A stretch of DNA of 64,000 nt, taken from NCBI RefSeq assembly GCF_003334385.1, contig NZ_QOWN01000025.1, one strand, 5' to 3'. Each line of letters starts with the position of its first letter. Positions within the stretch are counted from its first letter, which is position 1. The notes beneath the pieces are model-generated. The model had not been told where the DNA came from, did no database searches, and was given only the letters and a program-made list of their open reading frames with translations. Source of the stretch: Escherichia coli. Lineage in GTDB: Bacteria; Pseudomonadota; Gammaproteobacteria; Enterobacterales; Enterobacteriaceae. The position numbers and the translations under genes were made by a program. Shown in pieces: positions 3,762 through 63,908 of the stretch.

Positions 3762-6700
3762 TTATTCCGGGCGCGGCTTCAGCGGGAAGCGGCGGCGCAC
3801 CAGCACAAAGAACAGCGGCACGAAGTAAATAGCCAGAATAGTGGCCGAAATCATCCCGCCCATTACGCCAGTACCCACCGCATGCTGACCACCGGAACCG
3901 GCACCCGTGCTGGTTGCCATTGGCAATACGCCGAAGATAAATGCCAGCGAGGTCATCAGAATCGGGCGTAAACGCTGACGGCAGGCGTGGAGCGTCGCTT
4001 CAAACAGGTCGTGGCCTTTTTGGTTCATCTCGTTAGCAAACTCGACGATCAGGATGGCGTTTTTCGCCGATAAACCAATGACCGTTAACAGGCCCACCTG
4101 GAAGTAAACGTCGTTTTCCAGCCCGCGCATCCAGGTTGCCAGCAGCGCGCCGATTACCCCCAGCGGCACGACCAGCATTACCGAGAACGGCACCGACCAG
4201 CTTTCATACAACGCAGCCAGACACAGGAATACCACCAGCAAGGAAATGGCGTACAGCGCCGGAGCCTGCGCGCCGGAAAGCCGCTCCTGATACGACATCG
4301 CCGTCCACTCCAGACCAAAGCCGTTTGGCAGCTGCTTCACTAACGATTCCATAATATCCATCGCCGTACCGGTACTGACCCCCGGTGCGGCTTCCCCAAC
4401 AATCTCAACCGCAGAATAACCGTTATAGCGTTCCAGACGCGGCGAGCCTGTTTCCCAGCGTGAGGTCGCGAAAGCAGAGAAGGGCACCATGCCGCCATCT
4501 TTATTTCGGACATACCAGAGATTGATGTCATCTGGCAGCATGCGATACGGCGCAGCTGCCTGCACATAGACTTTCTTCACGCGACCGCGATCCATAAAGT
4601 CATTCACATAGCTCGAACCCCAGGCGGTTTGCAGTGTGTCGTTAATATCGTCGATAGCAACGCCCAGCGCCTGAGCTTTACGCTGGTCGATATCAATCTG
4701 CAACTGCGGACTGTCGTCGAGGCCGTTATGGCGCACACGGGTTAGCTCCGGGTTTTCCGCCGCCAGCGCCAGCAACTGATTACGTGCTGCCATCAGCGCA
4801 TCGTGACCCGCTCCAGCGTGGTCCTGCAACTCCATATCAAAACCTGCAGAACTACCAAGACCGCTAATTGCTGGCGGGCTGCTGGCGATAACGCGAGCTT
4901 CTTTAATTTGGTTAAACGCCTTCGTTGCACGCTCGATAATGGCAAACGAGGTGCCGGTCTTACTGTCGCGTTCGCTCCAGTCTTTCAGGCGGATAAACAT
5001 TCGCGCCACGTTTTGCCCGTTACCCCCAGGGCCAGAACCAACGGTGGCAAACACCGACATGATGTTGTCTTTTTCATGGGTGAAGTAGTATTTCTCGATT
5101 TGCTCAACGACTTTCAGGGTCTGTTGTTGCGTTGAACCGCTGGGCAACTGTACCGAGGTAGTAAACATGCCACGGTCTTCCAGCGGTAAGAACGACGTCG
5201 GCAAACGCAGGAACAGGAACACCATGCCGCCAAGCAGCAGGACATAAATCACAATCCAGCGCAGGCTACGGTGGAGAATTTTCGCCACCCCTTTTTCGTA
5301 GCGTTCGGCGTTGCGGTTAAACATCTGGTTAAACCAGGCAAAAAAGCCTTTTTGCCCATGATGCTCACCTTTTTTCAGTGGCTTAAGTAGTGTGGCACAC
5401 AGAGCCGGAGTGAGGATCATCGCTACCAGTACTGACAGCACCATCGCCGCAACAATGGTAATAGAGAACTGGCGATAGATGGCACCGGTGGTGCCGCCGA
5501 AGAAGGCCATTGGTACAAATACCGCCGAAAGAACCATCGCAATCCCGACCAGTGCCCCCTGGATCTGCCCCATCGATTTACGTGTGGCTTCGCGAGGAGT
5601 GAGTCCTTCCTCACTCATAATACGTTCGACGTTTTCCACCACCACGATGGCGTCATCCACCAGCAGACCGATCGCCAGCACCATCGCGAACATGGTTAAG
5701 GTGTTGACGCTGTAACCGAAGGCGTAAAGTACGGAGAAGGTTCCCATCAACACCACCGGCACGGCGATAGTGGGTATCAGCGTGGCGCGGAAGTTTTGCA
5801 GGAACAGATACATAACGAGGAAAACCAGAGCGATAGCTTCCAGCAGCGTTTTCACCACGTCTTCAATGGAGGCTTTAACAAACGAGGTGGTTTCATACGC
5901 CACCTTGTATTCCAGTCCATGCGGGAAATACTGCGCCAGCTCGTCGAGACGATTGAGCACCAGCTCCGCTGTCGCCATTTCGTTAGCGCCGGAGGCCAGT
6001 TTTACCCCCAGCCCGGAGGCTGGCTTACCATTGAAGCGGCTAAGATAATCGTATTTCTCCGCCCCCATTTCGACGGTGGCGACATCGCCCAGCCTTACCT
6101 CTGAGCCGTCCTGATTGACCCGCAAGGTGATATCGCGGAACTGTTCTGGTGTTTGCAGCAGTGACTGGGCGTTAATGGTGGCGTTGAGCGCCTGCTTATC
6201 GACGGAAGGTGTACCACCAAGTTGCCCAACCGCAATCTGCGCGTTCTGTGACTCAATGGCATCAGTGACATCTTTAGCCGTCATCTGGAAACTGTTGAGT
6301 TTCGCCGGGTCCAGCCAGATACGCATGGAATATTGCGAACCATAGGCATCGATATCCCCGACGCCATTCACGCGGCTTAACGGGTCCTGAATATTACTGG
6401 CAACATAATCAGCAATATCCTGTTTATCCATCGAACCATCGGTAGAGACGAAGGCAATGGTCAGAATGTTGGTATCGCCGGTTTTACGCACCGTCACGCC
6501 CTGATTTTGCACCGCCTGCGGTAACTTTCGCATGGCTGATTGCAGCTGGTTTTGTACTTGCTGCACGGCTTCGTCCGGATCGGTGCCTGCTTTAAAACTT
6601 AAAGTGACAGATGCCTGACCGGTGCCACTGCTCTGAGATGACATATACATGAGATTATCGAGGCCGGTCATATTTTGCTCGATAACCTGGGTCACGGTGT

Positions 6701-6875
6701 TTTCCAGCGTCTGGGCCGATGCGCCGGGATAGTTAGCGGTCACTCGCACATTCGGTGGCGCGAGATCGGGGTATTGTTCAACGGGCAATGAAAAAATCGC
6801 CAGGGTACCTGTCAGACACAACAGGATTGCCAGCACCCAGGCAAAAATGGGGCGATCAATAAAGAAATTCGCCAT
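3762..6875 (-). CDS. acrD: RND aminoglycoside efflux pump AcrD
   Basis: 1037 aa; 12-TM RND transporter; sequence matches AcrD. Confidence 0.95.
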
Positions 6876-6945
6876 TAAAAGAGGACCTCGTGTTTCTGCG
6901 TATCGTTGTAGGCTTGACTTGCTTCACTGTAGCGGCAAGGTACGA

Positions 6946-6963
6946 GCCAATCGTGGAGAAAAA
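6946..6963 (-). promoter_or_regulatory. candidate BaeR box upstream of acrD
   Basis: Reverse complement reads tttttctccacgattggc, matching the remembered BaeR consensus TTTTTCTCCATDATTGGC; about 70 bp upstream of the acrD start. Confidence 0.5.
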
Positions 6964-7038
6964 AAGGAGTTAATGTAAATTATCATGCCCTTTTATACTG
7001 AACCTTAAGTGCAAGTATTCTTTGGTCAGTAGGAGGCA

Positions 7039-8739
7039 TTACATTAACTGACTTTCCTCACCCTCCGCAGAGCGAAAGCTAATACTCACTAACGTGCCGC
7101 CGCCGGAAGGTTGTGAAAAAGTCAGCGTCCCACCTAGCCGTTCCGCGCGTTCGCGCATGATATTCAGACCATAATGACCTTCGGGTTCTTTCGGTTCACC
7201 GATACCAATCCCGTTATCACGGATATAAACCGTGTGATTGCCGTCCGGCGCGGTGACGCAACTGACGGCGATTTCGCTGGCGTTGGCGTGCTTCATCGCA
7301 TTCAGCACCGCTTCGCGAATAATTTGCAACAAATGCACCTGCATTTGCGCATCCAGTGCCAGGGTTGGCAGACGGCAGTCGAGGGTCAGTTTGGCGCTGG
7401 TTTGATTTTGTAACGTATCCAGCATTTCCCTCAATGCGGAGGGGAGATCCGCCTGCTGCAGCGTCAGGCGGAAAGTAGTCAACAGCTCGCGTAACTGCCG
7501 ATAAGCATCATTCAACGCCTGGGAAAAATCGGCCATGATACTTTGTGCGGTGGCGTTATCTTCCGGTATCGAACGCTTCAGTAACGTCAACTGGATACGT
7601 AAGTAAGAAAGTACCTGAGCCAGCGAGTCGTGCAATTCGCGGGCGATGGTCGCACGTTCTTCCATCAACAATAATTGCTGAAAATGCTTCTGCGCCTGAT
7701 TAAAGTACAAACCGCGTCCCAGCATCGACGAAACGCTGTTAAGCAGCGGTTCTGATGATGAAACGTGACTATTTTGCCAGTGCAGTTCGCCGTAAACCGT
7801 CTCTTGCATTGTCACCGGTAAAATCTGCATCGGCAATTCCGGGTTTGGTTGCCCTTCGCTAATCCGCCAGTTTTCACCGACATTTAACTCCAGATATTCA
7901 GCCGCTTCATTGTCGCGAACAATCTGCAAAATATGGCGGAAACAATGCACATCAATCTGGCTAGTGTTCAGCGCCTGCGAACACTGATACAACACCTCCA
8001 GACGACGCTTGGCCTCGTGGAGATCGCGGGTCTTTTCTTCTACTGACGCTTCCAGCGAACGGTACAATTTATGCAGCTCGCTCGACATCTGGTTAAAGGT
8101 TTTTGCAAGCAGACCAAGCTCATTCGGCAGGTTGGTATCCAGCGGCGGCGAGTCGAACTGCCCGTGTTCAATACGCTGACTGGCGGTAACCAGCTGATTC
8201 AGCGGGGCAACCACCTGATGGCGTATGCGGCGCAAAGTAAAAAAGACCAGCGTGAAAATACCGATGCCGCCAGCCAGGGAAATCGCCACCACCAGCAGCA
8301 TTTTGCGTTCAGCGTAGTGCTGTAAAGCCAGTACGAACAGGTCTATCTGATTAACATAATTATTAATATTGGCCTGATACCACGGCAAATCGCCCTTGCT
8401 GAGCCGATTATTCATCTCCAGCCAGTTGGCATTCAGATGCGCATAGCGAGTTTTTACTGCTTCTGGCACATACCAGACGTTGAGGTTGGTTAATACCGGT
8501 GAATGCAGTGCCTGCTGAAATAACTGGCGATGTGCATTGAGTTGTGGACTGCCACTTTGCAAGTCGTAGCCCAGGCGGTAACTCTGCATACGCAGCGATC
8601 CGGCAATATTGATAGCCTCAGCGTCGCGCAAACTGCTCGCCAGAGTTAGCAGAGCGATACCCGTGGAAAGAATCGACAGCAGCACAATGTAAAAAAAGGC
8701 CCGGGCCAGACTGGCCGAGACGGGTCGTTTAACAATCAC
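7039..8739 (-). CDS. narQ: nitrate/nitrite sensor histidine kinase NarQ
   Basis: ORF 7039..8754; GTG start gives 566 aa (MIVKRPVSASL...); HAMP plus HisKA_3 plus HATPase. Confidence 0.92.
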   Translation of the reverse strand: MIVKRPVSASLARAFFYIVLLSILSTGIALLTLASSLRDAEAINIAGSLRMQSYRLGYDLQSGSPQLNAHRQLFQQALHSPVLTNLNVWYVPEAVKTRYAHLNANWLEMNNRLSKGDLPWYQANINNYVNQIDLFVLALQHYAERKMLLVVAISLAGGIGIFTLVFFTLRRIRHQVVAPLNQLVTASQRIEHGQFDSPPLDTNLPNELGLLAKTFNQMSSELHKLYRSLEASVEEKTRDLHEAKRRLEVLYQCSQALNTSQIDVHCFRHILQIVRDNEAAEYLELNVGENWRISEGQPNPELPMQILPVTMQETVYGELHWQNSHVSSSEPLLNSVSSMLGRGLYFNQAQKHFQQLLLMEERATIARELHDSLAQVLSYLRIQLTLLKRSIPEDNATAQSIMADFSQALNDAYRQLRELLTTFRLTLQQADLPSALREMLDTLQNQTSAKLTLDCRLPTLALDAQMQVHLLQIIREAVLNAMKHANASEIAVSCVTAPDGNHTVYIRDNGIGIGEPKEPEGHYGLNIMRERAERLGGTLTFSQPSGGGTLVSISFRSAEGEESQLM

Positions 8740-8944
8740 ACGCGTCTTCTCCACAAAAAATCATTAATGTTCCAGTTCGCTGAAACGCAATTTAGTCAGT
8801 GATGGGATTATTTGATCTGCCACAGTTTATAGCGAAATAGTTACTTATTCTGGGCACATGAACATTGCCGATTCCCCTGTAAGTCGGGTAATAACAACAC
8901 TCATATAAAGAATAAGGTTTTTACAACCAAAAAAGAAGGTCGTT

Positions 8945-26148: not shown

Positions 26149-26335
<187 letters not shown>

Positions 26336-27589: not shown

Positions 27590-28989
27590 ACACTCGCCAG
27601 CTATTGAGCGTCGGTATCGATATCGGCACCACCACCACCCAGGTGATTTTCTCCCGGCTGGAGCTGGTTAACCGTGCGGCGGTGTCGCAGGTGCCGCGCT
27701 ACGAATTCATTAAACGCGAAATTAGCTGGCAAAGTCCGGTGTTCTTTACCCCTGTCGATAAACAGGGCGGTTTAAAAGAAGCGGAACTGAAAACCTTAAT
27801 ACTCGAGCAATATCATGCTGCGGGTATTGAGCCGGAAAGCGTTGATTCTGGTGCCATCATCATCACCGGTGAAAGCGCGAAAACCCGCAATGCTCGCCCG
27901 GCGGTGATGGCGCTCTCTCAGTCGCTGGGCGATTTTGTCGTTGCCAGCGCCGGGCCGCACCTCGAATCCGTGATCGCCGGTCACGGAGCCGGGGCACAAA
28001 CCCTTTCTGAACAACGGCTGTGTCGGGTACTGAATATCGACATCGGCGGTGGCACCGCGAACTACGCCCTGTTCGATGCCGGAAAAATCAGCGGCACTGC
28101 CTGCCTCAACGTCGGTGGTCGCCTGCTGGAAACCGACAGCCACGGGCGCGTGGTTTACGCTCATAAACCGGGGCAGATGATTGTGGATGAGTGCTTCGGT
28201 GCAGGCACCGACGCCCGTTCGCTGACCGGCGCGCAGCTGGTGCAGGTGACCCGGCGGATGGCAGAACTGATTGTCGAAGTGATTGACGGAACGCTCTCAC
28301 CGCTCGCGCAGGCATTGATGCAAACCGGTTTGCTGCCCGCAGGTGTTACGCCCGAAATCATTACGCTTTCTGGCGGCGTGGGCGAATGTTATCGCCACCA
28401 GCCCGCCGACCCGTTCTGTTTTGCCGATATTGGCCCGCTGCTGGCAACTGCGCTGCATGACCATCCGCGCCTGCGTGAGATGAACGTACAGTTTCCGGCG
28501 CAAACCGTGCGCGCCACGGTGATTGGCGCGGGCGCGCATACCCTTTCGCTCTCTGGCAGCACAATCTGGCTTGAGGGCGTACAACTGCCGCTGCGCAATT
28601 TGCCGGTGGCGATCCCGATTGATGAAACGGATCTGGTGGGGGCCTGGCAACAGGCGCTGATTCAGCTGGATCTTGATCCCAAAACTGACGCGTACGTGCT
28701 GGCGCTTCCCGCCTCGCTGCCTGTGCGTTACGCCGCGGTACTGACGGTCATCAACGCGTTGGTCGATTTCGTCGCGCGTTTTCCGAATCCGCATCCCCTG
28801 CTGGTGGTGGCCGGGCAGGACTTTGGTAAAGCTCTGGGCATGTTGTTGCGCCCACAGCTACAACAACTCCCGTTGGCAGTCATTGACGAAGTGATTGTCC
28901 GCGCGGGGGACTATATCGACATTGGTACGCCTCTTTTTGGCGGATCGGTTGTGCCGGTGACGGTGAAATCACTCGCATTTCCTTCCTGA
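27586..28989 (+). CDS. eutA: ethanolamine ammonia-lyase reactivase EutA
   Basis: 467 aa; matches EutA. Confidence 0.92.
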   Translation: MNTRQLLSVGIDIGTTTTQVIFSRLELVNRAAVSQVPRYEFIKREISWQSPVFFTPVDKQGGLKEAELKTLILEQYHAAGIEPESVDSGAIIITGESAKTRNARPAVMALSQSLGDFVVASAGPHLESVIAGHGAGAQTLSEQRLCRVLNIDIGGGTANYALFDAGKISGTACLNVGGRLLETDSHGRVVYAHKPGQMIVDECFGAGTDARSLTGAQLVQVTRRMAELIVEVIDGTLSPLAQALMQTGLLPAGVTPEIITLSGGVGECYRHQPADPFCFADIGPLLATALHDHPRLREMNVQFPAQTVRATVIGAGAHTLSLSGSTIWLEGVQLPLRNLPVAIPIDETDLVGAWQQALIQLDLDPKTDAYVLALPASLPVRYAAVLTVINALVDFVARFPNPHPLLVVAGQDFGKALGMLLRPQLQQLPLAVIDEVIVRAGDYIDIGTPLFGGSVVPVTVKSLAFPS

Positions 28990-49048: not shown

Positions 49049-49150
<102 letters not shown>

Positions 49151-63594: not shown

Positions 63595-63722
63595 CATTGG
63601 TGGGTCGTGCAGGATGACTCGCTTCGCTCGCCCTTCGGGCCGTCGCCGCGAGCGGCTCCGTTGTTTCGCTGCGCTCAACTCAAACCTGCTGCAGGTTCGA
63701 ATCTTTGAGTATCGCAGATAGT

Positions 63723-63750
63723 AAAAAAGCGCCTTTAGGGCGCTTTTTTA
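63723..63750. terminator. rho-independent terminator of the val-lys tRNA operon, copy 2
   Basis: aaaaaagcgcctttagggcgctttttt immediately 3' of lysV on the minus strand. Confidence 0.8.
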
Positions 63751-63753
63751 CAT

Positions 63754-63829
63754 TGGTGGGTCGTGCAGGATTCGAACCTGCGACCAATTGATTAAAAGTC
63801 AACTGCTCTACCAACTGAGCTAACGACCC
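63754..63829 (-). tRNA. lysV: tRNA-Lys (anticodon UUU)
   Basis: Reverse complement reads GGGTCGTTAGCTCAGTTGGTAGAGCAGTTGACTTTTAATCAATTGGTCGCAGGTTCGAATCCTGCACGACCCACCA. Confidence 0.95.
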
Positions 63830-63832
63830 GAG

Positions 63833-63908
63833 TGGTGGGTGATGACGGGATCGAACCGCCGACCCCCTCCTTGTAAGGGAGGTGCTCTCCCAGCTGAGCT
63901 AATCACCC
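63833..63908 (-). tRNA. valY: tRNA-Val (anticodon UAC)
   Basis: Reverse complement reads GGGTGATTAGCTCAGCTGGGAGAGCACCTCCCTTACAAGGAGGGGGTCGGCGGTTCGATCCCGTCATCACCCACCA; 3-nt spacer to lysV. Confidence 0.95.

Follow-up and report, generated by a model that had tools for sequence, protein, structure and literature searches.

The box upstream of acrD is a published BaeR site

Upstream of acrD there is a short DNA sequence that resembles a binding site for BaeR. Does BaeR use this sequence as its operator at the acrD promoter and, if so, what are the limits of the operator? We examined a 64,000 nt stretch of the Escherichia coli chromosome, hereafter the window, the first 29 kb of which are 99.99% identical to K-12. 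The regulated gene, acrD, encodes a 1037 amino acid RND permease at positions 3762..6875 of the minus strand. Both the open reading frame and the RefSeq annotation support this assignment, which had also been made in an earlier sequence-only reading of the window. The gene upstream of acrD is narQ (7039..8754, minus strand), and the narQ stop codon forms the edge of a 163 nt intergenic region. This region is fully identical to its counterpart in E. coli K-12 MG1655.

The motif, TTTTTCTCCACGATTGGC, runs from 6963 to 6946 on the minus strand and is identical to K-12 positions 2587507-2587524. It matches the BaeR consensus, TTTTTCTCCATDATTGGC, at 17/18 positions; the single difference is C for T at position 11. 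Counting from the box to the acrD ATG at 6875 gives a gap of 70 nt. Thus, the motif, the strand, the lone substitution and the distance of about 70 bp were all correctly described by the sequence-only reading. The 18-mer is the already published BaeR box preceding E. coli acrD and so is not a discovery. Its proposed use as an anchor for annotating the acrD promoter is nevertheless sound. The box ties an aminoglycoside and β-lactam efflux pump to envelope-stress signalling, a link present in the literature since 2005.

Consensus-free tests avoid a circular comparison

With up to 3 mismatches permitted, the acrD box is the sole match to TTTTTCTCCATDATTGGC in the 64 kb window, where 0.15 matches are expected. 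For up to 1 mismatch, the order-1 Markov expectation for the whole window is 5.6e-4 matches. The origin of the consensus determines how such numbers should be read. The consensus used in the earlier reading is the published BaeR box, credited to Nishino et al. (2005) by three citing papers. Taking the majority base at each position of the K-12 spy site (TTTTTCTCCATAATTGGC), the mdtA site (TTTTTCTCCCTTATTGGC) and the acrD site reproduces TTTTTCTCCATDATTGGC in full, down to the 'D' (A, T or G). To judge from this agreement, the acrD site is apparently among the three from which the consensus was built. The 'one substitution' match is probably circular, because the acrD site apparently helped to define the sequence to which it is compared. 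Our analysis adds this warning: the match is real but is weak as evidence. The upstream region of K-12 ycaC, cited as a fourth BaeR site (positions 2059-2371 of the fetched region), was also inspected. With up to 3 mismatches allowed, the BaeR consensus had no match in this 5 kb region, so the argument about the origin of the consensus is unchanged.

We therefore used two tests that do not depend on any consensus. In the first, the best 18-mer common to the intergenic regions upstream of acrD, mdtA and spy was the box itself, with a total Hamming distance of 5. The minimum total distance in 300 shuffles of these regions was 9. In the comparison with mdtA and spy that the sequence-only reading had suggested, 15/18 positions are identical across the three K-12 boxes; mdtA and spy are the other two core BaeR targets. 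The second test is the phylogenetic footprint described below. Together, the two tests remove the circularity, and the support that they provide is strong.

Conservation extends beyond the published 18-mer

A scan with the AcrD protein, using one genome per species, identified 80 orthologous loci with 82-99% amino acid identity. Upstream DNA was included for 79 of these. The resulting promoters represent more than 25 genera of Enterobacteriaceae, among them Escherichia, Citrobacter, Salmonella, Enterobacter, Klebsiella, Kosakonia, Kluyvera, Buttiauxella, Cedecea and Erwinia. The core (T/C)CTCCA(C/T)G was present in 79/79 promoters and, in 75, was located 81-87 nt before the ATG. In the 79-promoter alignment the mean information was 1.93 bits for the TTCTCCACG core, 1.55 bits for the published 18-mer and 1.56 bits for the 24 nt upstream of the box. 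The spacer downstream of the box averaged 0.32 bits and the distal intergenic DNA 0.25 bits.

The proximal core, TTTCTCCACGATTG, is located at 6948..6961 on the minus strand, with CTCC at 6958..6955, and is carried by 79/79 orthologues. Most columns of this core were identical in 78-79 of the 79 promoters. The ends of the 18-mer are less constrained. Thus, the first TT is T or A among orthologues and the terminal GC is essentially free. Conservation instead runs upstream of the 18-mer, through a second TCTCC and then an invariant TTTACA. The elements of this rigid module are, in order, TTTACA, distal TCTCC, proximal TTTCTCCACGwTTG and TAnAGT; the flanking DNA is unconserved. The whole conserved regulatory module, CATGATAATTTACATTAACTCCTTTTTTTCTCCACGATTG, spans 6948..6987 on the minus strand and carries 1.55-1.56 bits, compared with 0.25 bits for the distal DNA. 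Hence, the conserved unit is larger than, and offset from, the published 18-mer. We redefine it as two CTCC half-sites, the TTTACA element and a −10 hexamer, held at fixed spacings. The position of the box, fixed with respect to both the ATG and the −10 hexamer, indicates purifying selection in the orthologous promoters.

Two probable half-sites are positioned where a −35 element would be expected

The proximal half-site, TCTCCACGA (6959..6951, minus strand), lies within the conserved core. The distal half-site, ACTCC (6966..6970, minus strand), precedes the proximal CTCC by 11 bp. In E. coli, the CTCC cores are at −94 and −83 with respect to the ATG and so form tandem direct repeats 11 bp apart. 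The distal half-site reads TCTCC or TCTTC in 74/79 promoters (TCTCCT in 61 species and TCTTCT in 13), in the 11 bp register. The E. coli distal half-site, ACTCCTTTT, is a poor match to the alternative BaeR consensus TCTNCANAA.

Downstream of the half-sites is a predicted −10 hexamer, TACAGT (6926..6931, minus strand). In 78/79 promoters, a hexamer of the form TAnAGT or TAnATT has its first base exactly 27 nt downstream of the proximal CTCC. As would be expected of a −10 element, the third base alone varies (C, G or A). With TACAGT as the −10 element, transcription of acrD would start near position 6919. The half-sites would then be at about −51 to −47 and −39 to −36, placing them over the −35 position. 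A consensus scan of the acrD upstream region for σ70 promoters, with a −35 and a −10 element separated by a 16-18 nt spacer, returned none. Similarly, the box region contains no TTGACA-like hexamer, only the −10-like TAnAGT. The lack of a canonical σ70 promoter fits an acrD promoter that depends on an activator.

Full-text searches combining acrD, BaeR and primer extension returned no experimental transcription start for acrD, and a search for the literal acrD site sequence gave no match. The narQ-acrD intergenic region has no Rfam family match. Nor does it contain a terminator-like hairpin that could act as a narQ terminator.

A conserved TTTACA element adjoins the half-sites

The TTTACA element is located at 6974..6979 on the minus strand and reads GTAAA on the plus strand (6975-6979). 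It is a candidate CpxR half-site. The T, A, C and A of the element are invariant in 79/79 promoters, and the distance from TTAC to the proximal CTCC is 20 nt in 78/79. The CpxR consensus is GTAAA-N5-GTAAA. When tested for this arrangement, the acrD region yielded the one exact GTAAA and no second copy at the 10 bp register. Different sites for CpxR, also weak and of sequence GTAAA-agcgc-ATGAT, were put forward in work on Salmonella. The literature also describes enhancement by CpxR of BaeR-dependent acrD expression, and reports that this CpxR effect depends strictly on BaeR. Judged by its sequence and position, about −60 to −55, the GTAAA/TTTACA element could plausibly be where CpxR docks.

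The same DNA includes one arm of a perfect 11 nt inverted repeat, AGTTAATGTAA / TTACATTAACT, at 6968-6978 and 7039-7049. There are 60 nt between the arms; one overlaps the TTTACA element and the other the narQ stop codon. In another Escherichia the narQ end reads CAGCTGATGTAA, so the repeat is probably fortuitous.

Expression and binding data favour direct control by BaeR

According to Bury-Mone et al., the sites at which BaeR is reported to bind in E. coli number just four, at spy, mdt-bae, acrD and ycaC. Phosphorylated BaeR is stated elsewhere to regulate acrD directly, and in vitro binding of BaeR to the E. coli acrD fragment is reported in secondary citations. BaeR sites are reported in the Salmonella acrD and mdtABC promoters, and Salmonella tungstate data bear on BaeR-dependent acrD expression. 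In Erwinia amylovora, purified BaeR gel-shifts an acrD promoter fragment. The tables of Choudhary et al. provide expression data for K-12. In the presence of ethanol, the log2 change for acrD in a baeR knockout is −2.91 (p 2e-39), or ~7.5-fold. The equivalent value without ethanol is −0.20. In a cpxR knockout, the log2 change is −1.87. Taken together, the literature on direct regulation and the effect of the baeR knockout, at an identical K-12 promoter, bear out the suggestion that BaeSR controls acrD.

Choudhary et al. also used ChIP-exo to map myc-tagged BaeR in K-12 with 5% ethanol. No peak was found upstream of acrD, which they class as an indirect BaeR target. We compared the published tables with the box coordinates. 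The mdtA peak, peak_5 (2153931-2153967), spans the mdtA box (2153945-2153962). At spy, the peaks (1825677-1825711 and 1825823-1825843) flank the box (1825764-1825781) and are not over it. In vivo occupancy of the exact 18-mer is directly supported for mdtA only. Hence, the ChIP comparison proposed in the sequence-only reading has a mixed outcome, with a peak over the mdtA box and none at acrD. We also note that the upstream spy peak lies on TCTTCATAATCTCTGCAA (positions 365-382 and 424-448 of the K-12 spy upstream region were noted).

Could BaeR act on acrD only indirectly? The module would then be the operator of CpxR, or of another OmpR-family protein that recognises a similar half-site and is dependent on BaeR for its level or activity. 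This would accommodate BaeR-dependent expression without a called BaeR peak, the CpxR dependence of acrD (log2 −1.87) and the invariant GTAAA half-site adjoining the box. However, the box is shared with spy and with mdtA, where it is under a BaeR ChIP-exo peak, and it is unlike GTAAA-N5-GTAAA. Furthermore, BaeR binding is reported for the acrD promoters of E. coli, Salmonella and Erwinia, and the CpxR effect on acrD is reported to be strictly BaeR-dependent. We regard indirect control as improbable. With the operator conserved in this way, it is more parsimonious to suppose that peak calling missed the site. Thus, the missing acrD peak is probably a false negative and the 'indirect target' label is probably wrong.

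A second possibility is that the conserved block is a regulator-free core promoter, comprising a T-tract that resembles an UP-element and a surrogate −35 element, with only an incidental likeness to BaeR sites. The block is indeed at the −35/UP position relative to the conserved TAnAGT, and it includes a run of seven T. Even so, the invariant bases are CTCCACG, whereas the T-tract has two positions that vary between T and A, and nothing in the block resembles TTGACA. In addition, BaeR is needed for induced, but not basal, acrD expression. We consider a regulator-free block very improbable. Finally, although a match to a consensus derived from the acrD site proves little, the idea that the box is a functionless chance match is effectively refuted by the phylogenetic footprint. 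Across 79 species, the core hardly changes and keeps its distance from both the ATG and the −10 hexamer, although the DNA around it has diverged. In addition, only 5.6e-4 such matches are expected per window.

The E. coli distal half-site has a distinct allele

In E. coli, the distal half-site reads AACTCC (6971..6966, with the A at 6970), compared with ATCTCC in nearly all other genera. We used an 80 nt segment, covering the module and −10 hexamer, as a query against 5426 complete-genome E. coli records. The 80-mer with the A allele was identical in 5297/5426 records, and the T-allele 80-mer was in no complete E. coli genome. It is conceivable, if rather doubtful, that this lineage-specific T-to-A change weakens cooperative BaeR binding, making E. 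coli acrD a low-occupancy target that is more reliant on CpxR. If true, the weakened distal half-site could explain the lack of a ChIP-exo peak despite BaeR-dependent expression.

In approximately 21 of the 5426 records, coverage of the 80 nt promoter query is below 80%. In E. coli DETEC-E480 (NZ_CP116181.1; fetched segment 1-2500), an ISEcp1 transposition unit ends immediately upstream of TTTACA. The unit carries plasmid-type genes, namely finO, an ANR-family regulator and a truncated thermonuclease. The narQ-proximal DNA is gone but the BaeR module is kept.

Other features of the window

The 6.8 kb cryptic prophage CPZ-55, which splits the eut operon of K-12 MG1655 (eutB/eutA), is absent from the window at 28967-28989. 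Hence, the eut operon is intact in the window strain. The DNA flanking the CPZ-55 site is 99.96-99.99% identical to K-12. Rfam matches at 1413-1489, 26201-26282 and 49070-49112 are to naRNA4 and ES036, which are ordinary repetitive extragenic elements. Copies of naRNA4, derived from REP elements, are found between ypfN and ypfH and between eutH and eutG. Genes for tRNA-Lys(UUU) and tRNA-Val(UAC) are on the minus strand at 63598-63908, and are adjoined by an Rfam RtT match scoring 47.3 bits (gathering score 45).

A model for activation of the acrD promoter

BaeR is a winged-helix response regulator of the OmpR/PhoB family. Activators in this family characteristically use direct repeats that are spaced by one helical turn and replace a −35 element. 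Phosphorylated BaeR most probably binds the pair of CTCC half-sites, with their 11 bp spacing, as a head-to-tail dimer. The operator would thus occupy the place of the missing −35 hexamer. From here, BaeR would recruit σ70-associated RNA polymerase to a weak promoter by a class II mechanism, presumably with a contact like that made by PhoB. CpxR could dock at the upstream TTTACA/GTAAA element, which would fit the reported enhancement of BaeR-dependent acrD expression by CpxR. We estimate a probability of about 0.85 that BaeR uses the 6946-6963 region as its operator at acrD, working as a dimer site of this class II type. The sequence match, the sharing with mdtA and spy, the conservation and the promoter geometry are from the present analysis; BaeR dependence and BaeR binding are from the literature; the dimer, the start of transcription, the class II contact and the role given to CpxR are inferences.

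Comparison with known systems

The pho boxes bound by PhoB share several properties with the acrD operator. Both consist of direct repeats separated by approximately one helical turn and located over the −35 position, with a −10 element present and no −35 element. The half-site sequences differ and, for BaeR, a contact with σ70 region 4 is predicted. The CpxR box is similar in that an invariant GTAAA is found directly upstream of the acrD BaeR half-sites, and acrD is CpxR-dependent. It differs because acrD has no second pentamer.

Operators that resemble the acrD site in sequence are recognised by two OmpR-family regulators, AdeR in Acinetobacter and DzrR in Dickeya/Burkholderia. The DzrR footprint is on TTCTCCATCATATCTCCATATT, where CTCCAT is repeated at 11 bp. 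AdeR was crystallised on AAGTGTGGAG-N-AAGTGTGGAG, the other strand of which is CTCCACACTT-N-CTCCACACTT, also an 11 bp repeat. As at acrD, these are tandem CTCCA(C/T) repeats of 11 bp period that serve to activate an RND pump. At acrD, the proximal half-site, CTCCACGATT, is similar to CTCCACACTT of AdeR. AdeR and DzrR are different regulators from different organisms, compared with BaeR here by their operator sequences. In each of their operators the two half-sites repeat one another almost perfectly; the acrD distal site keeps only (T/A)CTCC.

The boxes of mdtABCD-baeSR and spy are, like that of acrD, in the sense orientation upstream of a BaeR-induced gene for efflux or envelope stress, with the same 15/18 identical positions. 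The mdtA box is covered by a BaeR ChIP-exo peak, whereas acrD has no called peak. A second CTCC is found upstream of the box in all three cases, but the half-site spacing is 11 bp at acrD, 10 bp at mdtA and 22 bp at spy. The distance from box to start codon also differs (70, 53 and 138 nt for acrD, mdtA and spy respectively). For spy, the likeness extends downstream, where 14 nt separate the box from TACACT, just as 14 nt separate the acrD box from TACAGT. This shared arrangement hints at a BaeR-specific upstream promoter for spy.
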